From Bacteroidia bacterium (GTDB taxonomy: Bacteria > Bacteroidota > Bacteroidia > B-17B0 > Aurantibacillaceae): a DNA stretch of 64,000 nt. The notes beneath the pieces were generated by a model. That model was not told where the DNA came from. It searched no databases and saw nothing but the letters and a program-made list of their open reading frames with translations. Shown here piece after piece: positions 2,562 to 64,000 of this stretch. Numbering within the stretch: the stretch's first letter is position 1; the number at the start of each line of letters is the position of its first letter. Location of the stretch: the NCBI GenBank assembly GCA_036676295.1, contig JAKFDE010000035.1:18727-82726 (forward strand). The letters run 5' to 3'. A program made the position numbers and the translations under genes.

Positions 2562-2575
2562 AAACTATCAAACAA

Positions 2576-11493: not shown

Positions 11494-11530
11494 AAAAATC
11501 CCTCCACCAAGCGGGGAGGGATTTTATTTT
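11494..11530. terminator. Intrinsic terminator downstream of dnaA
   Basis: aaaaaatccctcc-accaagcgg-ggagggatttt hairpin flanked by A-run and T-run, 15 nt after the dnaA stop. Confidence 0.7.
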
Positions 11531-11544
11531 TATAAAAGCATTGC

Positions 11545-12981: not shown

Positions 12982-13119
12982 ATTATAAAAAAGTTTTAAA
13001 GTATATAGTGTTTAGTCTTATTAACAATTCTGAGTTTGTAAATATATATCGATTATTTAATCTCGCAAGAGAAAAATGAATAAATAATTTCAAAAAATTT
13101 TCGTTTTGGGCTTGCTTTT

Positions 13120-14052
13120 TTAAATTTTTCTGTTATCTGAATTATGGGATATTTTTTTCTTACCATGAGAAAAGAACACATCTACTTTCCCTAACCAAAT
13201 TCCTGCCCATCCAACTTGCGTTACAAATACTTCTTTACCCACTCTGTTAGCCACTTTTACAGGGTGTTCCAGAAAGGTATGTGAATGCCCGCCGATGATC
13301 AGATCAATATTTTCGGTTTGTGGAGCCATGCTCATATCACTTATTTTTTTGTCGTTATACGAAAAGCCTAAATGAGATAAAGCAATTACATAATCGCAGC
13401 CTAAATCCTGTTTTAATAATTTAGCCGTAGCATTGGCAATTGGCAATGGGTTTTGGTAGACCGTTTCTTTGTACATTTTTTTGTCAACTAAACCATCTAA
13501 TTCAATTCCGTACCCTAAAATGCCAATTTTGATCCCGCTTTTTGTAAAAATCTTGTAAGGAGAGATCTTGTTATTTAAACAGGTATTTGAAAAATCATAG
13601 TTACAGTTGATGAATGAAAATTTTGCATGAGGCATTTGTTTTTCAATATTTTCAATACTCAAATCAAAATCGTGATTGCCAATTGTTGTGGCATCATAAC
13701 CCATCATGCTCATTAATGTGTATTCCAACTCACCTTGGTATAAATTGAAGTAAGGCGTGCCCTGAAAGATGTCTCCTGCGTCTAATAATAACACATTCTC
13801 ATTCTCTTTTTTTATTTGTTCTACAATGGCAGCTCTCCGAGCAAAGCCTCCCATATTGGCAAATTTAGGGTCATTGCTGGGAAAAGGTTCAATGCGACTA
13901 TGAATATCATTGGTGTATAAAATAGTCAGCTTTGTTAGGTCCTTGCTGATGAGGGCTTCTTTTGATAATGCCGGAAAACCAGCTAATACAGCTGTTGTGC
14001 CAGCAAAATATTTTAAAAAGTCACGTCTATTTTGATATTGAAATTCTGCCAT
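13120..14052 (-). CDS. Metallophosphoesterase (5'-nucleotidase/UshA N-terminal-type domain), Tat-type signal
   Basis: 310 aa. RRDFLKY twin-arginine-like N-terminus. TNDIHS, DAGD, GNHDF and GGHSH metallophosphatase motifs. Confidence 0.8.
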   Translation of the reverse strand: MAEFQYQNRRDFLKYFAGTTAVLAGFPALSKEALISKDLTKLTILYTNDIHSRIEPFPSNDPKFANMGGFARRAAIVEQIKKENENVLLLDAGDIFQGTPYFNLYQGELEYTLMSMMGYDATTIGNHDFDLSIENIEKQMPHAKFSFINCNYDFSNTCLNNKISPYKIFTKSGIKIGILGYGIELDGLVDKKMYKETVYQNPLPIANATAKLLKQDLGCDYVIALSHLGFSYNDKKISDMSMAPQTENIDLIIGGHSHTFLEHPVKVANRVGKEVFVTQVGWAGIWLGKVDVFFSHGKKKISHNSDNRKI

Positions 14053-14779
14053 CTAAATACGGTTTTAAAGTTTTTCCTTGTTTGGTCATATCATTGCAGT
14101 AGTTAATAACTACATCTCTCAGTAAGGCATTCATTGGTTTTCGTTCAATGGCATTTTTAAAGAAGGTGTAGTTATCTCCTCCATTGGCTAAATAATCAGA
14201 GGTTACTACCCAATAATTTTTTGTTTCATCAAATGCTTTTCCCCTAATAGTGATGTCAGTTGGTGTAGTTCCTTTCATCACCATTCGCATGCCACCAACC
14301 GGAATACCACCTTTTTCTACGATCTTAAAACACATATCTTTGAATTGAACGCCACTTAATTTTAGTAATACTAATTCATTATCAAAAGGCATTAACTCAA
14401 AAATATTTCCAATAGTGATATTGCCTTTTGGTAAAGAATTACGGAGCCCGCCTTTATTAAATACGGCGGCATCCAACATGGCAGAGTCTTTTCCTAATAA
14501 TAGTTTGGTTTCATAAATAACACCATCGCAAAAAAAGTTTCCTAAAGTACTTTCCACATCAGCTTTTATAAAGGCATCTTCAGCTTGTGCAATTACTTTA
14601 TGCATTTGTTCATCATGCGATTTTTTATAGGGTGCTATTACTTTGTAAATGTTGCTGTCAATGTCATTTTTGTTAATAACATAATGCGACTCTGCAACAT
14701 TAGATACAATGGCTTTGTGTTGACAGCCGGATAAACTAATAAGTGCTGAAAAAAATATAGAACAGAAGAATAATTTCAT
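14027..14779 (-). CDS. 5'-nucleotidase C-terminal (substrate-binding) domain lipoprotein
   Basis: 250 aa. Lipobox LSGC. Resembles the UshA C-terminal domain. Overlaps the downstream metallophosphatase gene by 26 nt. Confidence 0.7.
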   Translation of the reverse strand: MKLFFCSIFFSALISLSGCQHKAIVSNVAESHYVINKNDIDSNIYKVIAPYKKSHDEQMHKVIAQAEDAFIKADVESTLGNFFCDGVIYETKLLLGKDSAMLDAAVFNKGGLRNSLPKGNITIGNIFELMPFDNELVLLKLSGVQFKDMCFKIVEKGGIPVGGMRMVMKGTTPTDITIRGKAFDETKNYWVVTSDYLANGGDNYTFFKNAIERKPMNALLRDVVINYCNDMTKQGKTLKPYLDGRISISK

Positions 14780-14822
14780 GAATTTATAAAGTAAATTAGG
14801 AGTCTTAAAGATACGTTTTTTT

Positions 14823-15236
14823 ATGATAAAATCCGAGACATCAGTACGTGTAAGATATGGTGAAACTGACCAAATGGGCTTTGTATATTATGGGGTATAT
14901 GCTCAATATTATGAGGTAGGAAGAGTGGAGGCCATGCGCAGTTTAGGTTTTAGTTACCGCGAAATGGAAGAAGCGGGTGTATTGATGCCGGTGATCAATC
15001 TTAACATTAATTACAAAAAACCTGCCCTATATGATGATGAAGTAAGGATCGTAACTACTATCACAGAAATGCCATCGGTGAGAATTACATTTCACTACGA
15101 ATGTTTCAATCAAAAAAATGAACTACTCAATAATGGTTCTGTAACTCTTGTATTTATTGATAAAGTAAAAAATAAACCAATGCAACCGCCTCAATGGTTT
15201 TTAGATGGGTTTATGAAGAAGTTTAAAAAAGATTAA
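14823..15236 (+). CDS. Acyl-CoA thioesterase, YbgC/4HBT hotdog family
   Basis: 137 aa. VRVRYGETDQMGFVYYGVYAQYYEVGRVEAMR is typical of YbgC-like thioesterases. Confidence 0.8.
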   Translation: MIKSETSVRVRYGETDQMGFVYYGVYAQYYEVGRVEAMRSLGFSYREMEEAGVLMPVINLNINYKKPALYDDEVRIVTTITEMPSVRITFHYECFNQKNELLNNGSVTLVFIDKVKNKPMQPPQWFLDGFMKKFKKD

Positions 15237-15270
15237 GGACACAAGATTAAAGATTTATGATTCGTAAAAA

Positions 15271-16125
15271 TCAAAATCTAATCTCGCAACCGGGTAACAA
15301 TGCTTTTAACTCTTCAATGTATTCTTTAGAAAAATTATTGCCACGAACATCAAGCAGAGTAAGGTTTTCAAGCTGAGAGATGGAATCCGGCAATTTTTTT
15401 AGAAAATTATTTTTGACAGAAAGTAACCGTAAATTTTTGGCTAAATAAATTTGATAAGGAATTTCATTGAGTTTATTTGCATCTAAAACCAACACTTCCA
15501 ACGTATTAAAACGTTCAAAATGTTTGGTAAGGTAAAATACATTTGCATTGGTTAAGTTTAAATAATTCAAATTTGGAACTTTGAATATTTCTTTTGGAAA
15601 GCTATCTAATACACAGTTTTCAATTGTCACATCTTTTAAATTTTTTAAATAACGTAAAGACGTTGGTAAATGTAACGTATCGTTTGTAGAGGAAATTTTC
15701 AATGTTTTTAATTTACTTAAGTAAGCAATATCAGCAGGAATGCTATCGAATTTTGCTCCAAAGAATTCCAGATAATTTAAATTTGCTAACTTTTTAAAAT
15801 CGGGAGGAAAGCTTTCAAATTCATTGTTATAGCTGGCAAAATAAACCAAATTATATAGATCACTAAATCCGGGGGGAAAGGTTTTCACTTCATTACCACT
15901 CAGTTTTAAAGCCTGAAGGTCTTTGAGCTTACCTAATTTTGCATATAATTTTGGCTCCAGTTTTTGATAGCTGAGATCCATTTTAAATACATTTTTCTGA
16001 ATATCTAAAGCCACTTTTAGATCGGTGTAAACTTTAGAACCAAAAGGCCCGTATTTATCAAATTCATTATTTTGAGCAAAGCTTAAGCTTGTAATCAATA
16101 AAAATATGAAGAGGAATTTGTACAT
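15271..16125 (-). CDS. Secreted leucine-rich-repeat protein
   Basis: Repeated L..L..L.L..N.L..(F/I)P units. Signal peptide MYKFLFIFLLITSLSFAQ. The ORF-track start at 16149 is TTG, so ATG at 16125 is preferred. Confidence 0.7.
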   Translation of the reverse strand: MYKFLFIFLLITSLSFAQNNEFDKYGPFGSKVYTDLKVALDIQKNVFKMDLSYQKLEPKLYAKLGKLKDLQALKLSGNEVKTFPPGFSDLYNLVYFASYNNEFESFPPDFKKLANLNYLEFFGAKFDSIPADIAYLSKLKTLKISSTNDTLHLPTSLRYLKNLKDVTIENCVLDSFPKEIFKVPNLNYLNLTNANVFYLTKHFERFNTLEVLVLDANKLNEIPYQIYLAKNLRLLSVKNNFLKKLPDSISQLENLTLLDVRGNNFSKEYIEELKALLPGCEIRF

Positions 16126-16184
16126 ATCGGTTCTAACGAATGTACTCAATTTTTTGAAAAATAAAAGTGGGAATGAATAAATTG

Positions 16185-16598
16185 TTAGAAACCCATTTTC
16201 GTCAAAATTTCAAGCTTGTAGTGCATATCCAGCGAGTAGGATAGTGTTGCCTGAGTTTTCAAAAATGAATACAGTAAAAATGCCTTTTTATAACACTGGT
16301 CGGCTTGTTTTGAAGATGTTTCTGACTTTAAATAATATTCTGCTTTTTCAAACAAGAGATCGCCTAACATTTTTAGTTGTTCGTCGCTTAGCTTTTTGTC
16401 TTCAATTAAAGTTTGTAATAGTAGTTCGTCAGGGATCGTTTCTACAAAATTAATTTCAGTACTGGTATATTTTTGTGAGGTGGTGTTTATTAATTCTTCC
16501 AATTCCGAAAATTTGGCATCACGTTTTAATCCTAATAAAACGGCCATTACTTTTCCAAATTCTTCAAATTGTTTAACTAAATAATCACGCTTTAACAT
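16185..16598 (-). CDS. Hypothetical protein
   Basis: 137 aa ORF with ATG start. Overlaps the coaE stop by 14 nt, which suggests co-transcription. No motif recognised. Confidence 0.4.
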   Translation of the reverse strand: MLKRDYLVKQFEEFGKVMAVLLGLKRDAKFSELEELINTTSQKYTSTEINFVETIPDELLLQTLIEDKKLSDEQLKMLGDLLFEKAEYYLKSETSSKQADQCYKKAFLLYSFLKTQATLSYSLDMHYKLEILTKMGF

Positions 16599-17175
16599 GA
16601 GTTTTTAATTTGTTGATGATCTGTAATACTTGTGGAATTAAGGCATTCGAAGGATCGTTGCTAATAGTGAAATTAGCTAAAGGAATTTTTTGCTCATCGG
16701 TCCATTGGGCATGCATGCGCTTTTCAATTTCTTCTTTTGAAACAGAACTACGTTTCATTACCCGCTCTATTTTTACATCTAATGAAGCAGTCACAATGAT
16801 ATTATAATCCAGATCTTTATAGATACCGGTTTCAAATAATAAAGCGGTTTCTTTGATGATCAATTTATTTTGAGGGAATAGCGCAACAAATTGTTCAAAA
16901 TCTGTTTTTACTGCCGGATGAATAATAGCGTTTAGTTGATGTAAGAGTAACGTGTCTCCAAATACTTTTTTTGAAATATAATTCTTATCAATTTCCTGAT
17001 CTGATACATAAGCTTCTTTGCCTAATAAAGAGATGACTTGTTGTTTGACCTGAGGCTCGAAATATAATTCTTTGGCTCTTTCATCGGAATTATAGACAGC
17101 GCAACCCATTGTTTCAAACAATTTAGCTACCGTTGTTTTTCCGCTACCTATGCCGCCTGTAAGCCCAATGATCAT
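16585..17175 (-). CDS. coaE: Dephospho-CoA kinase
   Basis: 196 aa. MIIGLTGGIGSGKTT P-loop at the extreme N-terminus. Confidence 0.9.
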   Translation of the reverse strand: MIIGLTGGIGSGKTTVAKLFETMGCAVYNSDERAKELYFEPQVKQQVISLLGKEAYVSDQEIDKNYISKKVFGDTLLLHQLNAIIHPAVKTDFEQFVALFPQNKLIIKETALLFETGIYKDLDYNIIVTASLDVKIERVMKRSSVSKEEIEKRMHAQWTDEQKIPLANFTISNDPSNALIPQVLQIINKLKTHVKA

Positions 17176-37745: not shown

Positions 37746-37877
37746 AATTTATAAAGAAGTGGCGAGAGAATAGGCTCATTGACCCACTGGCAACCAACTC
37801 AAAGTACAGATGTTACAATCAGTATTGGAAAACAGGTGCCAATTCCTACTCCGATGAAAAGCGGAGGAAAATAAATT
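37746..37877 (+). promoter_or_regulatory. SAM-I (S-box) riboswitch aptamer
   Basis: P1 AAUUUAU (37746-52) pairs with AUAAAUU (37871-77). ...GUGGCGAGAGAAUAGGCUCAUUGACCCACUGGCAACC...GGUGCCAAUUCC UACUCCGAUGAAAAGCGGAGGA reproduces the conserved GGCAACC / GGUGCCAAUUCC junctions and the P4 hairpin (CUCCG/CGGAG). Lies upstream of metX-hom. Confidence 0.8.
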
Positions 37878-55050: not shown

Positions 55051-57552
55051 CTATTGATATTGGCTGTTTTTTCTGTTTTTAAAATATTTTACGGTTTCAA
55101 GAATTATCAAAACAGAACTTGCTCCAATTAGTGATGATACAAAATGTTTATAGCCCGGAAATTCAAAGCTGAAAATTTGTTGCATGAACGGAACAGAAAT
55201 CACAACGAGCAACACAACAATTGCAACTGTAAGAATGATCCACGCGGCCCAGTTTTTTTCGGTTATGATTTTAATAAAGTTTCTTGTTTTAGAAAGATTA
55301 GTGAGTATAAGAAATACATTTCCAATGATCAAGGAAGAAAATGCAATTGCTCTCACCTCTTCATTAGTATGGCCTTCGTGAATGGAAAGAAAATAAATTG
55401 TCATGGTCATACCAAGTAGGAGTAACCCTTGTAGTACGCTGGCTAAAATTTTATTTCCTCCAAAAAACTTTTCTTTTGAGTCTCTTGGTTTTCTGCTCAT
55501 AATATTTTCTTCTTCTTGTTCATGTTCAAAAGCAATTGAACAAATAGGATCAATTATCAGTTCCAGAAGCACGATATGTAATGGCATTAATAAGATTGGT
55601 AAAGAAGAGAAAAAAGCAGGTAATAACGTCAACCCAATTATTGGAATGTGGATAGCTATAATGTATGACATTGCTTTTTGTAGATTGTCAAATATTTTTC
55701 TTCCTAAACGAATGGCAGATACAATGGAAGCAAAGTTATCGTCTAATAAGACTAGTGAAGAAGCCTCTCTTGCAACATCGGTTCCTTTGTTCCCCATTGC
55801 TATACCAATATCGGATGCTTTTAATGCAGGAGCATCATTTACGCCATCGCCCGTCATGGCTACAATTTCATTATTAGCCTGCAGTGCCCGTACAATTCGC
55901 AGTTTTTGTTCGGGTACAACGCGTGCAAAAACAGTTATACCGGATATTATATGTTTTAGTTCATCATCATTTAATTTGTTTAATTCACTACCGGTCATTA
56001 ATTTTCCTTCACGCTTCATGCCTATTTGTTGTGCAATACTTTTAGCGGTTGCCGGAAAATCACCGGTGATCATAATTACTTTTACACCGGCATCTTGACA
56101 TTCTTTAATAGCAATTGGCACTTCAGGTCGTATAGGATCTTCCAGACCAATTAGACCCTTAAATTTAAATTCAAACTCAATTTGCGAATCCGGTAAAGTG
56201 CCCGATGTTGGTGTGGAGTCTGCAACAGCAATTACCCTGTATCCTTTTTCTGCAAAAGATTCAACAATATTCAAATATTTTTCAGTGTCTTGGTTATTTA
56301 ATTTACATAATTTAAAAATAGTTTCCGGTGCTCCTTTAGTTGCTACTACAACCGCATTGGATGTAGTATCTTTTAACACCCTTGTCATTGCCAATAATGA
56401 TTTGCTTAAAGGATATTCTTTAAGTAGTTCTGAAGAATCGTCGGCATTGTTATTTACTAATTGATCAGCTGTTTGAAAAGCTTTCTCCATTGGATCTACT
56501 GAGTTTTTTTGAGAAGCCAAATGAGCCAATTTTATAATTTCAGAAATATGATCTCGTGTGTCTAAAAATGTATTTTTTTCGAAAGTGTCATGGCCATTAT
56601 ATACAATGCCAACTTCCATTTTATTTTGTGTAATGGTTCCTGTTTTATCACTGCATAAAACTGTTGCAGAGCCAAGTGTTTCAATAGCTGATGGTTTTCT
56701 TGTTAAAACATTTTTTTTTGACAAGCGCCATGCACCTAAGGCTAAAAAAACGGTAAGAACTACTGGAAATTCTTCAGGAAGTATAGCCATTGCCGAAGCA
56801 AGACCATTTAATAGAGATTGAATAAAATTACCCCTTACAAAATAAAAAGTTAAAACTACAACCGTACTAATAATTGCGCCAAATATAAATAAATTGCGAA
56901 TAAGGGATTTCATCTCTTTTTGCATACTGGTTTCATGTTGTTCGATACTTAATAAGGAACTTCCAATTTTTCCAAACTCAGTATGTATACCTGTAGCAAT
57001 TATCTTGATATATCCTTTACCCTGTATTACCAGTGTTCCGCTGTAAACAAGTCCGTTTTTGTTGGTAGGATCTTTCTGAACAGATTTTAATACAGGGACA
57101 GATTCTCCGGTCAAAATAGATTCGTCTACAGTAAGGTTTAATGAGTCAATTAAAATTCCATCAGCAGAAACTCTGTCTCCTTCGTTTAAAATAACAACAT
57201 CATCAGGTACAACTTCTCTTCCTGAAATTCTTATTTCTTTTCCGTTTCGGATCACTAATGATCTGGGAGAAGAAAGATTTTTAAGAGCGTTTAACGCTTT
57301 TTCGGTTTTTTGATATTGGTAAAACGTAATAAAAATAATAATAAAAATTGTTGACAGGAGTATTATTCCTTCATTTATATCTCCTAATAAAATGTATAAA
57401 CAACCACAAGTTATAAGAAGTAAAAACATAGGTTCTTTGATCACTTCAATGGCAATACCAATAATATTCTTTGGCTTTTCTGAAGGCAATTCGTTGTATC
57501 CAAAAGAGCTAAGTCTTTTTTGCACTTCACTTGTATTTAAGCCATTTATCAT
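55051..57552 (-). CDS. Cation-transporting P-type ATPase (type II, Ca2+/Mg2+-like)
   Basis: 833 aa. TGES, CSDKTGTIT phosphorylation site, MITGD and TGDGVNDAPAL motifs. ~10 TM helices. Confidence 0.92.
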   Translation of the reverse strand: MINGLNTSEVQKRLSSFGYNELPSEKPKNIIGIAIEVIKEPMFLLLITCGCLYILLGDINEGIILLSTIFIIIFITFYQYQKTEKALNALKNLSSPRSLVIRNGKEIRISGREVVPDDVVILNEGDRVSADGILIDSLNLTVDESILTGESVPVLKSVQKDPTNKNGLVYSGTLVIQGKGYIKIIATGIHTEFGKIGSSLLSIEQHETSMQKEMKSLIRNLFIFGAIISTVVVLTFYFVRGNFIQSLLNGLASAMAILPEEFPVVLTVFLALGAWRLSKKNVLTRKPSAIETLGSATVLCSDKTGTITQNKMEVGIVYNGHDTFEKNTFLDTRDHISEIIKLAHLASQKNSVDPMEKAFQTADQLVNNNADDSSELLKEYPLSKSLLAMTRVLKDTTSNAVVVATKGAPETIFKLCKLNNQDTEKYLNIVESFAEKGYRVIAVADSTPTSGTLPDSQIEFEFKFKGLIGLEDPIRPEVPIAIKECQDAGVKVIMITGDFPATAKSIAQQIGMKREGKLMTGSELNKLNDDELKHIISGITVFARVVPEQKLRIVRALQANNEIVAMTGDGVNDAPALKASDIGIAMGNKGTDVAREASSLVLLDDNFASIVSAIRLGRKIFDNLQKAMSYIIAIHIPIIGLTLLPAFFSSLPILLMPLHIVLLELIIDPICSIAFEHEQEEENIMSRKPRDSKEKFFGGNKILASVLQGLLLLGMTMTIYFLSIHEGHTNEEVRAIAFSSLIIGNVFLILTNLSKTRNFIKIITEKNWAAWIILTVAIVVLLVVISVPFMQQIFSFEFPGYKHFVSSLIGASSVLIILETVKYFKNRKNSQYQ

Positions 57553-57603: not shown

Positions 57604-57690
57604 GTGCCAATAGCAACAAATCTGATAGTTAGTTGGAGTTTAGCGCTTTTGTATATGCCGAAGCTGGATGTCCAAATTTAATTTAGGTGA
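57604..57690 (-). repeat. Junction repeat copy E0 (truncated)
   Basis: caatagcaacaaatctgatagttagttgg...gcgcttttgtatatgccgaagctggatgtccaaatttaatttaggtga aligns with both ends of E3 (61867-62000) and lacks the central part. Lies between the SRPBCC gene and the ATPase gene. Confidence 0.65.
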
Positions 57691-57740
57691 GTTATTGGCT
57701 GTGTTTATATCTTTGTATTTTAAAGATATTCTTGAAATTG

Positions 57741-58226
57741 TTATTTTTCACAAATTTCTTTCAACTTATCGAGTGCTTTTGGGTAGGTCTGGTTCATATA
57801 ATCTAAAAAATCTTCATTGGTGTCTAAGTCAACAGTAACGGTTGCCGTTCCCTGTCCGACTGGATCGCCCGTACGGGCATTGTTTTCTTCGAAGGTATAG
57901 TTTTCAAATCCGTTTGCCCATTTTTCCACTTCTGGTCCTTCTGTAATTTCTTTATCCGCTTTAAAAAGACCATAATGTTGAATCGACACAAATCGGTTGG
58001 GAATGTTTTCAACTATCTTGGAAACCATACCTCCCTTTTCTCCTTTTTCATCTACTCCAATAAATAGAATTTTATTTTCCTTGTCCCAATTTCCTTCATA
58101 GGTCGATGTCGGATTAAACAAAGAAGTCCATTGCTCATAAGTTGATTTACTGTTGATGCCAAGCATAAAATCATAAATCTTGGTCACAGGTGCATTGATG
58201 CTTATTTTGAATTGTAATTTTTTCAT
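57741..58226 (-). CDS. SRPBCC/AHSA1-like domain protein
   Basis: 161 aa, size and pattern of Aha1/BPI-like START-fold proteins. Tentative. Confidence 0.55.
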   Translation of the reverse strand: MKKLQFKISINAPVTKIYDFMLGINSKSTYEQWTSLFNPTSTYEGNWDKENKILFIGVDEKGEKGGMVSKIVENIPNRFVSIQHYGLFKADKEITEGPEVEKWANGFENYTFEENNARTGDPVGQGTATVTVDLDTNEDFLDYMNQTYPKALDKLKEICEK

Positions 58227-58336
58227 ACTATTAATGTTTGTTTAAATGATCCCGATAAACTTGAGCCTGAGATTAGTTGAACGCTATCGTGATCGGGTTG
58301 TTGTTTTTAGTTATACTTAATAGTTGTTTAACTTAG

Positions 58337-58510
58337 CCTATAACGTTTTGGAGCTAAATTTTAGTTTGGGCTTTGAAACCGTTTCTATCAAACTGCTTAA
58401 TAACAAAGTTAAATGTTTATTAGCCATTTGCAAAGTGAAAATTAAAAACTTGTCTACCGCTTTTGCAAATGCTTTGATGTCGCCTAAATAATACAACCCG
58501 TGTGTTGGTG
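58337..58510 (-). repeat. Junction repeat copy E1 (promoter-bearing)
   Basis: Minus strand: CACCAAC end box, TTTGCAAA palindromes at 58462-69 and 58427-34, and promoter CTTTG (58431-35)-N19-TAACTTTG (58404-11). Ends AAAACGTTATAGG (58337-49). Its 52 nt core is 51/52 identical to E5. Confidence 0.85.
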
Positions 58511-58572
58511 TCTGGTGTTCTATCTGTCTTTATTATTTGTTAAAGATAATTTGTTAATCCACGGCCATGTTA

Positions 58573-59001
58573 CTAAAAATTAGATCTTTGGATTCTTAAC
58601 ATATTTGCTACTCTTAACTCTACATATATTATCAATACTATAATAAAAATTTCAACCAAAAAATATATCAATCCTATTCGTGTTAAGTCGTTGTAATAAG
58701 TATATAAAAACGTCATTGTCAAAATACAATACAAAAAATTACTAATACCTATTATTCTTAAATAGGGTGTCCAATAGTCTTTAAGAAAAAGGTAACAAGA
58801 CATAGAATAAGCACAATAAACCAAACCAATTATTGATAAGAATGTCAAAATGTTTGCAGGCATACCGAAGTAATCGTAGTAATGTCTTAAAACAAAAAAC
58901 AAGGAACACGTTGTCAATGCTGCACCCAAACCGTCAAGTAGAAAAAGTTTCTTTGGTTTTCTTGAAAAATAATCTATTGTGCTTTTGATATTAATCTTCA
59001 T
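58573..59001 (-). CDS. Hypothetical 4-TM membrane protein
   Basis: ORF-track ORF 58573-59058 starts at TTG. The ATG at 59001 gives MKINIKSTIDYFSRKPKK followed by 4 hydrophobic helices. Confidence 0.5.
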   Translation of the reverse strand: MKINIKSTIDYFSRKPKKLFLLDGLGAALTTCSLFFVLRHYYDYFGMPANILTFLSIIGLVYCAYSMSCYLFLKDYWTPYLRIIGISNFLYCILTMTFLYTYYNDLTRIGLIYFLVEIFIIVLIIYVELRVANMLRIQRSNF

Positions 59002-59093
59002 ATGGTTTTCTCTGAAAAGAATTTGTCTGTCATGTTTTTTTTGGTCAATAGTTAACAATATTTTTATTCATACAATTTTTCGTTCATATAACT

Positions 59094-59525
59094 TTATGCT
59101 TCGATACGAGGCCATTTCCATGCGTAACGGATGATTAGACAAAGAAGAACGGCTTCTACAACAGCGCCAAACACCATGTGCATCCAAGCTTCTCCTGCTA
59201 AATTAAACAATGTAAAGGGAATATACACCGCGGCAATAATGATATTTACCCAGCGATTTATAATAGCCGGTAGGGCAGCAGAAAGGAAAATCATCAGTGC
59301 CGGAATGGTTACTGAGGCGAGTGCTGCCAACAGAAATCCTTGCGTAATATCAAATTCAAACACCCTCCCTGTTTGAATATCTACAAGCTTACTCGGCATA
59401 TATAAGTGGAAATAATCAACATAGATATAGAGAAACATAAAACTCGCCCAAAGCATAGCAAGCTTCAGTTTCATACTAACTTTGATATCTTCCAGTGCAT
59501 TTTGTGATGATTTTTGTGTATCCAT
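59094..59525 (-). CDS. Small polytopic membrane protein (DUF6326-like)
   Basis: 143 aa. KLKLAMLWASFMFLYIYVDYF... and C-terminal YAWKWP resemble DUF6326 members as I recall them. Confidence 0.5.
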   Translation of the reverse strand: MDTQKSSQNALEDIKVSMKLKLAMLWASFMFLYIYVDYFHLYMPSKLVDIQTGRVFEFDITQGFLLAALASVTIPALMIFLSAALPAIINRWVNIIIAAVYIPFTLFNLAGEAWMHMVFGAVVEAVLLCLIIRYAWKWPRIEA

Positions 59526-59535
59526 AAATTTTCAA

Positions 59536-60165
59536 TTAAAAGTTATAACCAACATTAAGGCCTGGTTCCGGAAAGATGAATTTAGACCATTTATCATCTA
59601 GCTGTTTAAATCCATCAGGTAATTTTGTGTGATAAGCACGATGGGTCATACATACTGATGGTTGAAAGAAAAATTTATCTTTAAAGAGTTTGATGTGATA
59701 ACCAACACGGTATGAATTGAAAATCTGAAAACCATCGTCAATTTTCTTACCATTGTCATTCACAAAAATTTGCCAGGTAGGCATTACATCAAGTTGGGCA
59801 TACAAACCTTTCCATAAAAATCGTGTGTAAGAAGTTGTTGCGCCATACTCACGAATATACCCCGGAAATCTTTCTTCCGGTTTTTTGTAGGCTTTGTTTA
59901 AAAATGGATGAATACCATTTGGCCAGGCATATTTCCAGGTTTTTGGAGCTAATGTAATTACATCTTTTCCTGTGATCCGATAACCTATATTGAGTTGAGC
60001 GAAGTTGGGTGGGTTTTCTGTATCAAGATTACCCAATAGAACAAATAAAGAAGTCCCAACGAACCACTGTTTGTAAGTACTGTCTTGTTTGGCATATTGT
60101 GCATTCACCTGTAAGCTGCTTGTCAACACTAGGGCAAGTCCAAAGCATAAAATTTTCTTTTGCAT
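59536..60165 (-). CDS. Hypothetical secreted beta-barrel-like protein
   Basis: 209 aa. Signal peptide ...SSLQVNAQ and C-terminal ...GLNVGYNF, typical of OMP barrels. Confidence 0.5.
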   Translation of the reverse strand: MQKKILCFGLALVLTSSLQVNAQYAKQDSTYKQWFVGTSLFVLLGNLDTENPPNFAQLNIGYRITGKDVITLAPKTWKYAWPNGIHPFLNKAYKKPEERFPGYIREYGATTSYTRFLWKGLYAQLDVMPTWQIFVNDNGKKIDDGFQIFNSYRVGYHIKLFKDKFFFQPSVCMTHRAYHTKLPDGFKQLDDKWSKFIFPEPGLNVGYNF

Positions 60166-60249
60166 ATCTTTTTTTTATTGATAAATGATATTGCAAAAGT
60201 AGATTGGCGAGACACCATAACTTGTTCACTTAAGTTAAGAAATACGTTT

Positions 60250-60828
60250 TTAGCTCTTTTTTTCAAGAATTCTTGCTCTTAATCTGCTTAATGATTGAGG
60301 TTTGATCCCTAAATAGCTCGCTAATTGGTGTTGTGGCACACGCTGAACAAGGTCTGGTCTTTTTTGTAATAAATTAAGGTATCGTTGTTCAGGCGAAGAA
60401 GTTTTAAACTCGTCAAAGTCTAGTTGCCGTTTAGCTAACAATTCTTCCGACAACATTCTGCACATGATTTCAAACTTTGGAAATTTACTGTTTATTTCTA
60501 CTCCCATATCAGAATTTGAAATTAGAAGAATACTGTCTTCAACACAACTTATGAAATAATCAGAAGGAGATTTGTTTATTACACAATGAGGTGTTAAGGC
60601 GTCCTGTTCTGTGTAGAAAGCTGTTGTTTTTTCTTCTCCGTCTATGATATAATAAACCCGAATACAGCCTTTTAAAACAAAATAGCTCTCTGGAGATTTT
60701 TGTCCTTCTTTGAGTAAAACCGTCCCTTTCTTTACTGAGTGAAACAGGTCTAAAGAAAGTAATGCGTTCTTCTCATCATCTGTCAGAGAAACGTATTTTG
60801 AAATAAAGTCAAATAGTAAGTCTTGCAT
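60250..60828 (-). CDS. Crp/Fnr-family transcriptional regulator
   Basis: 192 aa. cNMP-binding-like domain and C-terminal HTH (LASYLGIKPQSLSRLR). Confidence 0.8.
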   Translation of the reverse strand: MQDLLFDFISKYVSLTDDEKNALLSLDLFHSVKKGTVLLKEGQKSPESYFVLKGCIRVYYIIDGEEKTTAFYTEQDALTPHCVINKSPSDYFISCVEDSILLISNSDMGVEINSKFPKFEIMCRMLSEELLAKRQLDFDEFKTSSPEQRYLNLLQKRPDLVQRVPQHQLASYLGIKPQSLSRLRARILEKKS

Positions 60829-60865
60829 TATTTTTACGTGTTGTTAATGTCGTCTGTTACACTTG

Positions 60866-61029
60866 CCACCAACGCCTTTCAGCTACCAGTTTACAGCTCA
60901 AGGCCGTCTTCTACCTAAAAGCTTACTAACAAAGCTAAATATTTCTTAGCCATTTGCAAAACTAAAAAATTCTACGCCTTAAATTTTTGTAAATGCTTAT
61001 ACTTCTGCCCGCATTAGGCAAAGGTGCGG
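60866..61029 (-). repeat. Junction repeat copy E2 (promoter-bearing)
   Basis: Starts directly after the MBL stop codon. Minus-strand promoter TTTG (60957-60)-N19-TAGCTTTG (60930-37). TTTGCAAA at 60953-60 and TTTGTAAA at 60986-93. End box GGCGTTGGTGG (60866-76). Confidence 0.8.
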
Positions 61030-61767
61030 TTAGCGGTAGTTTTTCTTTTTCAGTTTTTTTGCCAACTTTATTGAATGTTTTAATGAGTTTATATTATTCC
61101 AGTCGTGATGTGAAACGATTATAAAGTTTGGATCAGGATATTTTTTCTGCACATTTTTAAGAGTAGTTTCGTATTCAATAACATTGCCATCTCCCAAGTA
61201 ACCTAAATTTTCAGCATCTCCGCCTTTAATAAGACAACCACCGTATAGTATTTTCTCTTTGTTAAACCAAACAATAATGTTGTCTGCTGTATGTCCTTCT
61301 CCGGGGTAATAAGTTTCAAATGAATATTGGCCAATACTGAAAACTGTGTCCTTTGTCATTAAAAACTCAGCCCTTTTCTTGTTATGTTTTTTACTTAGTT
61401 CATCAGTTAGAAAAGTTGTGTAAGTTTTAATTCCTTTTTGTTTGTAATATTCAAGTCCTTCAGTTCTGTCGCTATGCCAATGCGTTGCAATACACAAAGT
61501 CACACTTTTGTTGTGTTTTAATTTTATACTGTCAATCAACGGTTGAAATTGTGTTGTGTCCCAAGGTGTGTCAAACAATACAACGCCATTATTTGTGAGA
61601 AGATACATTCCATTTGAAGGTATTAGGCTTCCTTCGTAAGTATTGTATGTTGTATAAATGTAAAAGTTGTCTGTTAAGTATGAGATTTTAAGTTTCGCTT
61701 CTTCTGTCTGTCCAAAAATATTGGTTAGTGAAAAAATGAATGTTATTGTCAATATAATTGTTTGCAT
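61030..61767 (-). CDS. Subclass B1 metallo-beta-lactamase
   Basis: 245 aa with signal peptide. HWHSD (H116-x-H118-x-D120), GEGHTADNIIVW (H196), GGCLIK (C221) and SHHD (H263) are in B1 order and spacing. Confidence 0.85.
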   Translation of the reverse strand: MQTIILTITFIFSLTNIFGQTEEAKLKISYLTDNFYIYTTYNTYEGSLIPSNGMYLLTNNGVVLFDTPWDTTQFQPLIDSIKLKHNKSVTLCIATHWHSDRTEGLEYYKQKGIKTYTTFLTDELSKKHNKKRAEFLMTKDTVFSIGQYSFETYYPGEGHTADNIIVWFNKEKILYGGCLIKGGDAENLGYLGDGNVIEYETTLKNVQKKYPDPNFIIVSHHDWNNINSLKHSIKLAKKLKKKNYR

Positions 61768-61812
61768 TTATTTCTTGTCTTTTTTGATTGGATTATGTTG
61801 TCTTTAAAACTA

Positions 61813-62014
61813 CCACTAGCGTTTTTAAGCTACCAGTAGTGCTGTTTGAAATCGTTTTCTACCGAACTGCTAATAACAAATCTAAATGTTTATTGGCTAT
61901 TTGTAAGACAGCGCTCCGATTTTTTTATCGGAGGTGAATTAACTAATTGCCTGCCGCTTTTGCAAATGCCGAAGCATAATGCCCAAATGGGATTTAGGTT
62001 GTGTTAGGCGCTGG
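61813..62014 (-). repeat. Junction repeat copy E3 (promoter-bearing, longest)
   Basis: Minus strand begins GCCTAAC (62003-09 on plus as gttaggc), 5 nt after the upstream stop. TTTGCAAA at 61959-66. -7 box TAGATTTG (61877-84) with a degenerate -33. Inner CTCCGAT/ATCGGAG hairpin. End box AACGCTAGTGG. Confidence 0.8.
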
Positions 62015-62020
62015 TTAATT

Positions 62021-62488
62021 TTAATTCATTTGTCTAATAAAAGTATATTGTTTTGTGTCATTTGTTATTTGTCTAACAAATTTAAGTTGGTATATATGTT
62101 TAATATTGCATTTATTTTTAATAAGCATTTTGTTGCCTTGTAGCGTTTTATATTTGAAAGTGCTGCAAGGAAAGTCATAGGTGTATACTGGTGGCTTTTT
62201 GCAAATTAGCTCTGTAGTCAACCACAAATGTTTTTTTGATTTGAATGTCAAAACAGTTATTTCACAAATAGATGAGTCTTTTATATAAGCACTATTGTCA
62301 TAGAATACAATAGTATCGTTATTAAAAATGTCTTCATAATGCTTTAAGCAAATCAAATTTTTTGTGCTAATTTCTTTGTCTGATAAAAATTTGATTATAA
62401 TTTCATCCAGTTTGAAATTAGTTATTGGCTGTCCGTATGCAGAAACAAACATTGTCATTAAGAAATATATAATTACGAGTCTATTCAT
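62021..62488 (-). CDS. Hypothetical small secreted protein
   Basis: 155 aa. Signal peptide MNRLVIIYFLMTMFVSAYGQ. Several Cys. No motif recognised. Confidence 0.5.
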   Translation of the reverse strand: MNRLVIIYFLMTMFVSAYGQPITNFKLDEIIIKFLSDKEISTKNLICLKHYEDIFNNDTIVFYDNSAYIKDSSICEITVLTFKSKKHLWLTTELICKKPPVYTYDFPCSTFKYKTLQGNKMLIKNKCNIKHIYQLKFVRQITNDTKQYTFIRQMN

Positions 62489-62664
62489 AACGGAAAGCGG
62501 CTAAATTTTAGTTTGGGCTTTGAAACTCTTTCTACCGAAACATTACTGACAAAGATAACTGCTTAATGGACATTTGCAAAGCACAAATAAACTACTTTCA
62601 CGCAGCGACAGCTTTTGCAAATGCTGTACTCGAATACCCAAATAGAACCGAGAATTTGTAATTG
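62486..62664 (-). repeat. Junction repeat copy E4 (promoter-bearing)
   Basis: Promoter CTTTG (62577-81)-N19-TATCTTTG (62550-57). TTTGCAAA at 62573-80 and 62614-21. The 5' UTR module ggtttcaaagcccaaactaaaatttagc is shared with E1. End box CCGTTATG overlaps the next gene's ATG. Confidence 0.8.
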
Positions 62665-63201
62665 TTATTTTATTGATTTTTCGTTCGACCATACAATTGT
62701 TTGTTTGTCCTTTGGTCTATTGAAAATATTTATGTCCCCTAAATTTTTATTTGTTAAGTCGAAAGTTTTTTCAACCGAATAAAAGTCAAACCCTAAGTTA
62801 ATTTTTGTCTCCTTACTACTACACCTGAAATGTGCTTGAAAATCATACTGTCCTTTTGGCGCTATTTTCATAAGTCTCGGATAACTGGCGTTGCAATTTA
62901 TAAAAGGTGTCAATACAAATTTCGCTGTGTCGTAACGTAACGAATATTGTTCTCCGTCACATGAAGAAGATAGAAAATAAACAGTGTCAGTATTGTCGTT
63001 GAAGAGCGAAGCTTTGATTTCTATTGTCTCTTTAAAAGTGTTAATTCGTTCTGCAGTAAAGTCAAAGCGTATATTTTCTTTTACTTTTCCCTGTGTCTTG
63101 TCAGAACCTACAACACTTAGTTCGGGTTGGTTTGGTTCTCTGCCCGCAATACAAGAAAGTCCTAAAGTAAGAATTATCAAAAATAGAGTTTGTCTTGTCA
63201 T
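62665..63201 (-). CDS. Hypothetical lipoprotein
   Basis: 178 aa. MTRQTLFLIILTLGLSC lipobox. No motif recognised. Confidence 0.5.
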   Translation of the reverse strand: MTRQTLFLIILTLGLSCIAGREPNQPELSVVGSDKTQGKVKENIRFDFTAERINTFKETIEIKASLFNDNTDTVYFLSSSCDGEQYSLRYDTAKFVLTPFINCNASYPRLMKIAPKGQYDFQAHFRCSSKETKINLGFDFYSVEKTFDLTNKNLGDINIFNRPKDKQTIVWSNEKSIK

Positions 63202-63231
63202 TTTATTGTCGTTTTACAATTACACTTAACT

Positions 63232-63400
63232 TGCACCTAACGTTTTCGCGGTTTACTTCGGCCGTTTTGGAACCATTGTCTACCGAAATGTTTCCTAACA
63301 AAGCTAAATGTTAATTGGCCATTTGCAAAGTAAAAATTAAAAACTTGTCTACCGCTTTTGCAAATGCCAAAGTTCAATGCCCGTATTTTTTATAGGTGCA
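63232..63400 (-). repeat. Junction repeat copy E5 (promoter-bearing)
   Basis: Minus strand: TGCACCTA...TAGGTGCA terminal 8 bp inverted repeats. TTTGCAAA at 63357-64 and 63322-29. Promoter CTTTG (63326-30)-N19-TAGCTTTG (63299-306). End box AAAACGTTAGGTG (GTTAGGT fits GTTRRRY). Confidence 0.85.
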
Positions 63401-63435
63401 GTTATATGCTGTAAGCGTCACCCATTTAATACTAG

Positions 63436-63927
63436 TTAATTATTGTATTGTTCTTTAATATAAATATGTTTTATATTACCATCATCCCAATTTACAATTA
63501 AAGAGTCGTTTTTAACAACACCTTTTAGTACTTTTCTTTCGTACTTTTTGTTTGGAGCTTGTTGAGGATAAAATTGTTCTATTTTTATCTCGTTGCCAGA
63601 TACGATAAAACGTCCACGCCATACGGAACTATTTTCAACGCTCAGGTCATTTTTCAAGAATAGTTCTTTTTTATAAACATTTAAAAATGTTCCATTAGCA
63701 TAAAACTTAATGTAGTCGTTGTAGTCATAATTTTGCGCCTTAATCTTTTTATAAATTGCCCCAGTGTCAATAACACTAAAGTCGTTCGATTTCATCGGCT
63801 GGTTGAATTTGAAGTAGGCCTGATTTATCGAAGCTTTCCCGTCAGCAGATCTTGTCACGTGATAACCACAAGAGTAAAGCAAAACGAAAGTTAAAATGAA
63901 AAGAAATATGTCAATTCGCCTTGTCAT
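63436..63927 (-). CDS. Hypothetical lipoprotein
   Basis: 163 aa. MTRRIDIFLFILTFVLLYSC lipobox. The N-terminus resembles that of the 62665-63201 product. Confidence 0.5.
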   Translation of the reverse strand: MTRRIDIFLFILTFVLLYSCGYHVTRSADGKASINQAYFKFNQPMKSNDFSVIDTGAIYKKIKAQNYDYNDYIKFYANGTFLNVYKKELFLKNDLSVENSSVWRGRFIVSGNEIKIEQFYPQQAPNKKYERKVLKGVVKNDSLIVNWDDGNIKHIYIKEQYNN

Positions 63928-64000
63928 TCTGATTATTTTATCGTGAATAACTCTTCTATGTGTGACTTATAATGTTTCAGTAACATTTTGTTTTTATCTG

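Follow-up and report, generated by a model that had tools for sequence, protein, structure and literature searches.

The window analysed here is a 64 kb stretch of a Bacteroidia contig. Between co-oriented genes at 57.6-63.4 kb we identified a repeat of 165-190 nt in five full copies and one truncated copy. These lie at the positions given in the original prediction (E1-E5 full, E0 truncated), and the ORF list bears out its statement that every ORF from 57741 to 63927 is on the minus strand. The repeat family is absent from the rest of the 64 kb window (24-mer with up to 3 mismatches, 3 hits vs 0.00 expected), and every member of the direct-repeat families D1-D7 falls within 57.6-63.4 kb. The array runs past position 64000: locus L001, which extends the window by about 600 nt, adds one gene, with the site end '..GCGAAAAC|GTTACCAG' before it. 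The features are listed below in the direction of transcription of the array; site coordinates follow the coding (minus) strand and span each site with its TAAC and GTTA boxes included.

Beyond 64000, upstream of the 201-aa ORF: site end '..GCGAAAAC|GTTACCAGTAATG' (L001)
63933-64000, minus: 3′ end of a 201-aa ORF with its start beyond the window, first gene of a two-gene cassette (L001)
63436-63927, minus: 163-aa ORF with a lipoprotein-like N-terminal signal, second gene of the same cassette (ORF list)
63404-63238, minus: E5, attC-like site TAAC..GTTA (nhmmer 151 bits; box coordinates)
63329-63299, minus: promoter motif of E5, TTTG-N19-TAgcTTTG
62665-63201, minus: 178-aa lipoprotein-like cassette ORF, its TAA stop being part of the E4 TAAC box
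62667-62488, minus: E4, TAAC..GTTA, with GTTA overlapping the ATG of the next ORF
62580-62550, minus: promoter motif of E4
62021-62488, minus: 155-aa cassette ORF, small secreted protein
62006-61817, minus: E3, TAAC..GCTA, with an additional 25-nt hairpin insertion at about 61911-61936
61030-61767, minus: cassette ORF for a subclass B1 metallo-beta-lactamase (BlaB/IND/MUS family), its stop codon within the E2 TAAC box
61032-60870, minus: E2, TAAC..GTTG
60960-60930, minus: promoter motif of E2
58573-60828, minus: four-gene cassette, with the following four genes
60250-60828, minus: Crp/Fnr-type regulator (Pfam cNMP_binding)
59536-60165, minus: 209-aa OMP-like protein
59094-59525, minus: DUF6326 membrane protein (Pfam DUF6326)
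58573-59058, minus: 142-161-aa membrane protein
58507-58341, minus: E1, CAAC..GTTA
58434-58404, minus: promoter motif of E1
57741-58226, minus: 161-aa ORF, last cassette (ORF list)
57640-57700, minus: E0, truncated terminal site with start box AGCCAATAAC, TAAC at 57694-57691 and a body of about 50 nt (alignment, D5/D6 repeats)
55051-57552: P-type ATPase gene adjoining E0 (Pfam matches)

E0 marks the distal end of the array. The end box of E3, GCTAGTGGTAG, is complementary to the start box of E2, and the unusual end GTTG of E2 is matched by the start CAAC of E1. Pfam and NCBIfam searches gave no match for the 163-aa ORF (63436-63927), and the label SRPBCC proposed for the 161-aa ORF found no support in these databases at E ≤ 0.01. 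The metallo-beta-lactamase label is correct, with a BlaB/IND/MUS subclass B1 match to NCBIfam NF012146 (294.6 bits vs a cut-off of 270).

The family comprises about 255-284 copies in 114 blocks from Bacteroidota MAGs. Within any one locus all copies share a strand, at a density reaching 9 per 7 kb, and the longest ORF was co-oriented with the sites in 141 of 159 units. The median unit measures 681 nt, the ATG following GTTA after 40 nt and TAAC following the stop codon after 32 nt. Two checks proposed with the original prediction gave clear answers. The repeats are not scattered independently of genes and form same-strand arrays with sites exactly between ORFs; the genes between them vary in content and order among genomes, with breakpoints exactly at GTTA. 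The proposed start and end boxes are real, being the most conserved columns family-wide (235 of about 270 copies have TAAC, 197 of about 240 have GTTA). The same grammar of boxes and pairing holds with unrelated bodies in L125 (a Chitinophagaceae array), L166, L195 and L126 (Flavobacterium restrictum), and there is a short site family of about 124 nt from TAAC to GTTR.

The 3′ part of an end box belongs to the next cassette, and thus pairing joins the two ends of one cassette. Bases 3′ of the GTTA of one copy complement bases 5′ of the TAAC of the next at 6.29 of 10 positions on average, with at least 7 in 56 % of units, compared to 3.20 for boxes of the same site (1.4 % with at least 7) and 3.04 for random pairs (1.7 %; Mann-Whitney p = 1e-55). 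Watson-Crick pairing is 0.88-0.99 at positions 0-8, of which positions 4-8 show 3-4 pair types, and 0.71-0.81 at positions 11-14. Positions 9-10 are systematically mismatched, and position 10 is C.A in 64 % of units, which on the bottom strand would be a G.T wobble. Within the window, the ends of the metallo-beta-lactamase cassette (GCTAGTGGTAGTTT / AAACTACCGCTAAC) match at 9 of 10 positions, as do those of the last cassette (GTTATAGGCT / AGCCAATAAC), whose boxes were read directly; the ends of the four-gene cassette (GTTGGTGGC / GACACCAAC) are complementary, including the covarying G/C of the core. Strong end pairing is absent in the 178-aa, 155-aa and first cassettes of the window, in a family where only 56 % of units are strong. 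Cassette ends covary as those of integron cassettes do, in agreement with the integron-like reading.

The sites also fold. Paired cells make up 86.5 % of the total; the share falls to 69.7 % in shuffled data and to 28-43 % with the partner slid. Double-sided (compensatory) changes number 352 against 153 shuffled, and the observed values were reached by 0 of 500 shuffles. These changes demonstrate a conserved imperfect hairpin with covarying long-range stems beside TAAC and GTTA, plus a central TTTGCAAA stem. The original prediction had held that the repeats do not fold symmetrically, a caveat that has to be dropped, while its other two caveats stand: the sites of the window exceed canonical attC sites in length and contain a promoter motif.

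We consider it likely that the repeat-bearing region represents the distal part of a chromosomal mobile gene cassette array, one that belongs to an integron-like system of Bacteroidota. The integron- or CALIN-like reading, put forward with caveats, was supported by every one of its suggested tests that was run. In the literature we searched, no description of this integron-like system was found.

No recombinase was found within the 64 kb window, and by itself the window is therefore CALIN-like. In relatives a linked recombinase is present, with an attI-like site at a fixed distance, so that this part of the expectation held there and not in the window. In 10 of 11 loci selected by the repeat, a tyrosine recombinase precedes the array and has the same orientation. 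The complement of the start box of the first site was found 3′ of the recombinase gene in 10 of 10 loci, usually between +93 and +103 nt, and an attI-like motif TATAAG-N1-2-AGTTA in 12 of 13. This attI-like site (TATAAG-N-TA|GTTA), about 90 nt past the recombinase, opens the first cassette in the related loci. Walking from it, we recovered an unbroken run of 10 units in L166 and one of 8 in L195, with ends typically matching at 13 of 14 positions and a constant 119-120 nt from TAAC to the next GTTR. The linkage is also demonstrated in an unbiased set of 80 loci picked by recombinase homology alone, 46 of which are on contigs that stop within 1 kb past the recombinase gene: all 22 repeat matches were 3′ of the recombinase and co-oriented, and direct-repeat pairs numbered 87 downstream vs 8 upstream. 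The array is absent in roughly half of the recombinase homologues having long downstream sequence.

The linked recombinase is not a canonical IntI and is Xer/XerA-like. It consists of PF00589 and Phage_int_SAM_4 domains with an additional N-terminal domain of 70-105 aa, and keeps all catalytic residues. It scores 215-224 bits against NF040815 and 194-211 bits against the integron integrase model TIGR02249, under the cut-off of 265; the nearest folds are XerA and then IntI4. The IntI-specific insertion is missing (18 aa vs 60 aa in VchIntIA). Since this insertion is described as essential to integron function (PMC8138268), catalysis on folded DNA is only putative for this enzyme.

These properties bear on the idea that the locus is a canonical integron or CALIN whose attC sites are ordinary and depend on a true IntI from elsewhere in these genomes, the Xer-like recombinase beside the arrays being incidental. 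The order of ..YAAC, imperfect hairpin and GTTR.. with crossover at GTT is indeed attC grammar, the short family is within the canonical attC size range, the window itself has no recombinase, and the notion of CALINs served in trans is established (PMC8618304). However, a conserved site about 90 nt past the Xer-like gene forms the 5′ boundary of the first cassette in many independent genomes, also in loci chosen by protein alone, and repeats occur only 3′ of this gene. Moreover, no IntI-type protein was found among about 900 kb of array-bearing loci, where the Xer-like family is the sole recurrent recombinase family, and complete integrons are reported to be nearly absent from Bacteroidetes (PMC9024848). 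We regard this explanation as unlikely.

Identical units of a gene and its downstream site part company exactly past GTTA. In four loci the common sequence covers the upstream region, the start box and the body through '..GAAAACGTTA', with divergence thereafter. Among 249 pairs of bodies at least 88 % identical, 9 share the upstream flank as well, 1 shares both flanks and 0 share the downstream flank alone; in 239 the genes on both sides were unrelated. Two shared genes have differing downstream bodies, and here the break falls at TAAC. Given the unrelated flanking genes and the TAAC breaks, bodies are also exchanged or newly attached, through a process outside the simple integron scheme. Such exchange could be taken further, in which case the 170-nt body would itself be mobile, as a short non-autonomous element or a gene-conversion unit of the MITE/REP kind, and the genes among which it spreads would not be mobile cassettes. 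Bodies 95-100 % identical do occur between unrelated genes in different MAGs, with identity ending exactly at TAAC/GTTA, a body-body fusion is seen in L092, and E1 and E5 share 50 of their central 52 nt (recounted; 51 had been claimed) while their flanks differ. We find this quite improbable, as it leaves unexplained the compensatory complementarity of gene-unit ends, which is absent between the flanks of each body, the attI-like array start without a body, and the joint movement of gene and downstream body. The metallo-beta-lactamase is a further difficulty, as the gene retains its 5′ box among unrelated bodies: homologues with the same 5′ box recur as cassettes in other arrays, with other site families and in other orders. 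Judged by these comparisons, the gene moves as a cassette.

The exact Bacteroidota sigma-A promoter motif (consensus from PMC9723704), facing the next gene, was present in 108 of 222 bodies on the coding strand, compared to 1 of 222 both after shuffling and on the opposite strand, and is presumably active. The motif TTTG-N19-TAnnTTTG faces outward in the site, and therefore the site of the preceding cassette would drive transcription of each cassette, in place of a single Pc. With a promoter in about half of the copies, and a central TTTGCAAA hairpin that could serve as terminator or operator, the repeat might be a purely regulatory intergenic module (terminator, promoter and 5′ leader) whose copies arose by homologous rather than site-specific recombination. 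This is very unlikely: it gives no reason to expect covarying cassette ends, sharp breaks at GTTA or a linked recombinase with its attI-like site, and the short family retains the grammar, apparently without a match to the promoter motif. The long-range stems, furthermore, cannot form in one transcript from the site promoter, because one arm lies upstream of the promoter and the other in the leader.

Many invertases are used by Bacteroidota, and the gene-flanking boxes are inverted repeats with a site-specific variable core, as an invertase requiring identical overlaps would select, but phase-variable switches in which a tyrosine invertase flips the gene against a fixed promoter, as in Bacteroides, are hardly credible here, since sites have a single orientation in all loci, 141 of 159 units are 'ON', reversed gene families hold a constant orientation relative to the boxes, and a swapped position 10 (normally C in the start box and A in the end box) was seen in 0 of 114 units.

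For the cassette array, we propose the following scheme. A cassette runs from TTA-Rvar through its gene or genes to Lvar-TAAC, the folded body and a terminal ..AAAAC-G. Upon circularisation, the 14-15 nt 5′ of TAAC would pair with the 14-15 nt 3′ of GTTA in a closing stem of 9 bp, a conserved 2-nt mismatch and 4 bp. This stem would seal a long imperfect hairpin that extends into the body through a covarying stem in which C.C and A.C mismatches are conserved. The substrate may be single-stranded, in which case it is probably the bottom strand. A tyrosine recombinase, putatively the linked one, would cleave the folded site at or beside G|TTA and join it to a second such site or to an attI-like site. 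The platform is documented only in relatives, where it comprises a recombinase gene heading the primary array, co-oriented with the cassettes, and the attI-like site (a hairpin plus TATAAG-N-TA|GTTA) about 90 nt past its stop codon.

The system resembles sedentary chromosomal integrons and CALINs, such as the Vibrio superintegron with its VCR sites, in its one-directional arrays of small, mostly unknown accessory genes, in sites within ..YAAC / GTTR.. that form imperfect hairpins with structure conserved rather than sequence, in stop codons often within the start box, in an insertion site adjoining the recombinase gene and in multiple recombinase-less arrays per genome. Unlike in integrons, the recombinase has no IntI insertion, falls short of the integron-integrase cut-off, carries an extra N-terminal domain and is co-oriented with the cassettes, and the attI-like site is downstream of its gene, not upstream. 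The closing stem has 15 positions instead of 7, the spacer from core to inner stem is asymmetric (1 nt vs 5 nt), the site family of the window is 165-190 nt long with its own promoter motif, and the host phylum is reported to be almost devoid of complete integrons.

The chromosome-dimer resolvases XerA/XerC/XerD provide the best sequence and fold matches of the recombinase (NF040815, PDB 5hxy and 4a8e) and share its simple CB+CAT architecture lacking the IntI insertion. However, the system differs from Xer modules (dif, pdif modules, IMEXs) in having no 28-bp dif-like site with two 11-bp arms; its sites are folded elements of 120-190 nt with variable covarying stems, its arrays are many-unit with fixed polarity, and the locus has just one recombinase gene, encoding an enzyme with the additional 70-105-aa domain. 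Bacteroides invertible promoters and shufflons (Mpi, Tsr) share the phylum, the promoter type TTTG / TAnnTTTG and short inverted repeats for site-specific recombinases. In contrast to them, the present units show no orientation polymorphism, have the promoter outside the segment bounded by inverted repeats, and are arrayed, with GTTA breakpoints and movement between genomes. As to gene content, 138 cassette proteins match 130 Pfam families, and toxin-antitoxin modules are present in related arrays.

The window carries at one end a run of genes with a repeat between them, as listed here together with two other structured features.

63927 to 57741, minus strand: ten co-oriented ORFs
57.6-63.4 kb, minus strand: repeat copies (sites) E5 to E1, which split these ORFs at five places; the repeat is 163-190 nt long from TAAC to GTTA
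After E1: E0, a sixth, truncated copy, adjoining a P-type ATPase gene
61911-61936, minus strand: additional 25-nt hairpin CACCTCCGAT-AAAAAAA-ATCGGAGCG in the central loop of E3
37746-37877, plus strand: SAM riboswitch RF00162 (66.1 bits, gathering score 44.4), unrelated to the array

The arrangement confirms the one-directional, cassette-like array described in the original prediction. The repeat is restricted to this end of the window, as a 24-mer with up to three mismatches gave 3 matches against 0.00 expected from shuffling, and the window search placed every related repeat family within 57.6-63.4 kb. Scanned against Rfam, the window matched only the SAM riboswitch, so the repeat fits no known RNA family. 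One unit is a BlaB/IND/MUS subclass B1 metallo-beta-lactamase (MBL) gene and another is a four-gene block whose first gene encodes a Crp/Fnr-type regulator (Crp block); most of the remaining array ORFs had no family assignment. The array was also predicted to lack a visible integrase and to reach the window edge, and both points hold: no recombinase was found within the 64 kb, and a Logan contig of the same strain, which adds about 600 nt past 64000, shows one more gene with another repeat end before it, so the array goes on. A CALIN is defined by two or more attC sites in an array with no integron integrase nearby; the sites here number six, with no recombinase over the 64 kb and an array that runs past the end of the window. 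Exact-protein look-ups with the 163-aa ORF, the ATPase and the MBL yielded short Logan contigs of the same strain and nothing longer; these contigs stop at the edges of the array, and its head was not reached.

To search for the family we used a pattern for two TTTGCAAA boxes in one genome per species. It returned at least 114 stretches, almost all from Bacteroidota MAGs, with a few records labelled Bdellovibrio or Falkowbacteria. Among the matches listed were Bacteroidia, Sphingobacteriaceae, Saprospira, Flavobacteriales and Chitinophaga, and one MAG often contributed several contigs. A nucleotide profile found at least 255-284 site copies in 8-kb blocks of the 114 stretches listed. Within every locus all copies lie on one strand, typically spaced by 450-1500 nt and reaching nine per 7 kb. 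Between consecutive copies we delimited 159 units with a median length of 681 nt; the longest ORF is on the strand of the repeat in 141 of them, and the medians are 40 nt from repeat to ATG and 32 nt from stop codon to the next repeat.

In 149 full copies, the columns of a 5′-terminal TAAC and a 3′-terminal CGTTA are the best conserved. Of about 270 copies, 235 have TAAC, and of about 240, 197 have GTTA, in agreement with the integron-like start and end boxes proposed earlier. After TAAC, the body between the boxes consists of a variable arm, GCATTTGCAAAAGC, a variable loop, GCTTTGCAAATG, a TTTG-N19-TAnnTTTG block, TTTCGGTAGA, another variable arm and AAAAC. Base pairing joins the first variable arm to the second. 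On a plain MAFFT alignment RNAalifold recovered only the central 7-bp stem; mutual information revealed the long-range stems, which were then assessed against a named structure. In 100 copies, the 20 pairs of the three helices were paired in 86.5% of cases, compared with 69.7% in column shuffles and 28-43% with a slid partner. Double-sided (compensatory) changes numbered 352 against 153 in shuffles, and none of 500 shuffles scored as high. For example, one pair is G-C in 40 copies and C-G in 38, and another is A-U in 47 and C-G in 30. The statement that the repeats do not fold into a bulged hairpin is contradicted by these covarying stems. Conserved C.C and A.C mismatches are interspersed in the stem adjoining TAAC/GTTA. 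'CCCGATAGCTATCGGG' insertions resembling that of E3 occur in site copies of three other loci (L008, L024 and L112).

The promoter-like block is exact on the coding strand of 108 of 222 bodies, with the 19-nt spacing in 100 of these; shuffled bodies and the opposite strand each gave 1 of 222. The claim that the repeats carry promoters stands in the sense of a predicted motif. TAnnTTTG is the sigma-A -7 consensus in flavobacteria (PMC9723704), and the motif in the sites is presumably active.

In integrons, the bases after the core-site G belong to the next cassette, and they therefore match the start of that cassette's own site by complementarity. For the sites here, we scored complementarity over the ten variable bases that flank the GTTA/TAAC cores on the outside.

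Pairing of variable box bases (boxes compared; mean matches; share with at least seven matches)
End box of site n-1 and start box of site n; 6.29/10; 56%
Boxes of the same site; 3.20/10; 1.4%
Random box pairs; 3.04/10; 1.7%

The pairing of neighbouring boxes differs from the controls with p=1e-55 (Mann-Whitney). In the 114 best units it consists of 9 bp, a conserved 2-nt mismatch and a further 4 bp, and each variable position of the 9-bp stretch displays three or four pair types. Within the mismatch, most units have A.A at position 9, and 64% of these units have C.A at position 10. The latter would be a G.T wobble on the bottom strand only, which hints at recombination of a folded bottom strand, the mode of integrons, in which replication provides the resolution. 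Three cassettes in the window have complementary ends; the pairing is absent in the 178-aa unit, the 155-aa unit and the first unit.

Cassette ends in the window
MBL cassette: GCTAGTGGTAGTTT / AAACTACCGCTAAC, complementary
Crp block: GTTGGTGGC / GACACCAAC, complementary, with a compensating change within the core
Last cassette: GTTATAGGCT / AGCCAATAAC, complementary

A tyrosine recombinase of about 380 aa is the sole recurrent recombinase in the repeat-selected loci among the matches listed. In 10 of 11 loci it is upstream of and co-oriented with the array, with a single ORF preceding the first site, and in 10 of 10 loci the complement of the first site's start box lies 3′ of its gene. This attI-like site is located 85-103 nt, usually 93-103 nt, past the recombinase stop codon and has a local hairpin and a conserved TATAAG-N-TA directly joined to GTTA before the complement of the first start box. 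The first cassette after it has no body upstream, which defines the cassette as TTA..gene..TAAC-body-G.

As an ascertainment control, we took 80 metagenome loci chosen by recombinase homology alone. All 22 profile matches were downstream of and co-oriented with the recombinase, and self-comparison gave 87 direct-repeat pairs downstream and 8 upstream. Walking from the attI-like site, we recovered 10 consecutive units in locus L166 and 8 in L195. Their ends typically match at 13 of 14 positions with the miss at position 10, and TAAC and the next GTTR are a constant 119-120 nt apart; these arrays use a shorter body family (about 124 nt) with the same architecture as that of the window. Of the recombinase homologues whose downstream sequence is long, only about half showed arrays. 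As 46 of the 80 contigs end less than 1 kb after the recombinase gene, the region 3′ of it is a systematic assembly breakpoint, which is expected of repeat arrays or of population-level variability. Large contigs, the longest of 314 kb, break off within tens to hundreds of bases past the recombinase gene (L116, L117, L141, L163, L168, L173, L189, L200, L206 and others).

The junctions also vary between genomes. Four loci in three MAGs are alike over more than 369 nt upstream, through the start box and along the body as far as '..GAAAACGTTA', and diverge right after it. The breakpoints sit exactly after GTTA; as GTTA is invariant, they locate the crossover to this box rather than to one phosphodiester bond. 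A cassette common to two MAGs at 96% identity differs in its order relative to a second shared cassette, as expected from the variable gene order that the original prediction had put forward as a check. For the flanks, we took 249 body pairs from different loci with at least 88% identity. Nine pairs kept the upstream flank as well, one kept both flanks and no pair kept the downstream flank alone, so the body travels with the upstream gene as in integron cassettes. The reverse scheme, in which body and downstream gene move together as a promoter-gene unit, was rejected on the same 9:0 ratio and on the first cassette after the attI-like site, which has no upstream body. Taken together, we are highly confident that this is a real cassette array with site-specific junctions.

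Transfer with the upstream gene is not the whole story of the bodies. In 239 of the 249 near-identical pairs the genes on both sides are unrelated and identity ends exactly at TAAC and GTTA, two shared genes have different downstream bodies, and E1 and E5 have a core identical at 50 of 52 positions within otherwise different bodies. The near-identical core had been noticed before, with 51 of 52 identical positions, a count that needs correction. These three observations imply a further process, outside the simple scheme, that exchanges bodies, converts them or attaches them to new genes. The near-identical VCR sites of Vibrio arrays pose the same puzzle. Array-level homogenisation of bodies as in Vibrio was rejected, as identity was 0.69 within a locus and 0.68 between loci. 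No empty junctions were found except for a body-body fusion without GTTA..TAAC (L092, about 3924-4129), a 56-nt mini-unit that has no ORF and is enclosed by a pair of end boxes (L013, minus strand, oriented 1045-1101), as well as box-box fusions in L127, where at 9950-9975 a start box is joined directly to the next end box with no body (GCATAAC followed by AGCGGTAATTTT).

The recombinase scored 215-224 bits against NF040815 (XerA-like) and 194-211 bits against TIGR02249 (integron integrase), below the cut-off of 265 and with a match in two stretches. Its alignment with XerA is unbroken. Instead of the 60 residues that VchIntIA (IntI4) has around the IntI-specific insertion, the recombinase has 18. 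Its catalytic motifs (Arg, Lys, His-x-x-Arg, His and Tyr) are invariant. The family is large: at E<=1e-30 it counts at least 8000 database proteins, whose annotations read site-specific integrase, XerD or 'tyrosine recombinase/integron integrase'. The AlphaFold model (pLDDT 80) has an additional N-terminal beta-beta-alpha-beta-beta-alpha-beta domain, for which a fold search gave no informative match; the nearest folds of the recombinase are XerA and then IntI4. Judged by its sequence, the linked recombinase of the relatives is not a canonical IntI. The insertion is considered essential for integron function and is not fully conserved in an integron-like subgroup (PMC8138268).

The system thus shares some features with integrons and lacks others. 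The sites are imperfect palindromes with YAAC/GTTR cores and a structure conserved over sequence, and unrelated body families have the same grammar; crossover falls at the core (between G and TT in integrons), the 5′ end of the cassette pairs with the start of its own 3′ site, an insertion site lies beside the recombinase gene, and orphan arrays occur elsewhere in the genome. In contrast to canonical integrons, the I2 helix insertion of IntI is missing from the enzyme of the relatives, and the attI-like site is downstream of a co-oriented recombinase gene instead of beside a divergent intI with a common Pc. The sites of the window family exceed the attC range of about 57-141 bp, into which the short family fits. 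Whereas canonical cassettes are promoterless and served by Pc, about half of the sites here have their own promoter motif. Membership among Xer/dif-type modules agrees with the XerA-like enzyme and disagrees with the junctions, which are folded and 120-190 nt long and not 28-bp sites with XerC/XerD arms and a 6-8 bp spacer; no dif-like 11-6-11 site was found at unit boundaries. An inverton or shufflon would present segments in both orientations and was rejected, as the swapped box state occurred in 0 of 114 units and all sites within a locus are on one strand.

The MBL gene was followed in other contexts. Homologues with 82-88% protein identity are present in Saprospiraceae, Chitinophagaceae, Marinilabiliales and the isolate Flavobacterium restrictum. 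The Chitinophagaceae MAG carries the gene in an array with an unrelated body family of about 185 nt and the same grammar; in one example the ends pair at 13 of 14 positions (GTTGGCTGTAATTC / GAACTACAGCCAAC). In F. restrictum it is downstream of a short-family site, and in a Marinilabiliales-type contig its boxes are fused without a body. The 5′ box GTT[AG][AG]CGGTAATTT is kept across these contexts and reads GCTAGTGGTAGTTT in the window. The BlaB/IND/MUS-type gene is a bona fide cassette here. It bears on the origin of mobile B1 MBL cassettes, and it recurs in arrays of four different Bacteroidota orders or families. In a Saprospiraceae MAG, about 6 kb upstream of an MBL homologue, tandem units spaced by 104-184 nt (one gap of 266 nt), each with the palindrome GGAAAGTCCCTTTAGGGATTTAGGG, occupy L124 2914-3724; they are unrelated to cassette sites.

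With moderate confidence, the Xer-like enzyme would be the cognate recombinase and folded single-stranded DNA its substrate. We lean slightly towards the broader view that Bacteroidota possess their own phylum-wide, integron-like gene capture by an I2-less Xer-like tyrosine recombinase, either an ancestral integron state or an independent invention, in which some site families gained a promoter so that every stored cassette may be expressed, and which may be a natural reservoir and shuttle of subclass B1 MBL cassettes. Integron recombination is thought to need the insertion unique to IntI (PMC8138268); if this view is true, the system would reveal how single-strand site recombination arose from Xer-like enzymes, or else that it evolved twice. 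The predicted promoter in the site would free cassette expression from position, a qualitative contrast to classical integrons. Complete integrons are reportedly nearly absent from Bacteroidetes (PMC9024848), and we found no description of the present system in the searchable open-access papers and preprints. Because standard integron detection requires IntI, it would report these elements at best as orphan attC clusters. As a cultured carrier of a related site, F. restrictum opens the system to experiment.

Regarding the cargo of the related arrays, 138 cassette proteins match 130 Pfam families, most commonly TPR, T9SS sorting domains and MORN repeats. Cassettes with OMP_b-brl_2 (outer-membrane beta-barrel) are always opposite to the array (L007 754-1392, L052 4829-5470, L073 2845-3486) and keep their orientation relative to their own boxes, similar to the reversed cassettes of classical integrons. 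Toxin-antitoxin pairs (HigB/HTH, Phd/YoeB, ParD), as in sedentary chromosomal integrons, and Fic genes are also present (L125 7042-7675; L127 13722-14230 and 16841-17050), and L127 has an IS110 transposase at 2335-3303. In L118 (GCA_030153465.1), the recombinase and attI-like site are followed first by a 5-kb unit of several genes (11529-16876) with VWA, PP2C phosphatase, Ser/Thr kinase, DUF4407, DUF4236 and DUF6804 genes, which may be a defence-type module. The recombinase gene of L118 follows those of NAD kinase and enolase, and the same synteny is seen in L050 and L077.
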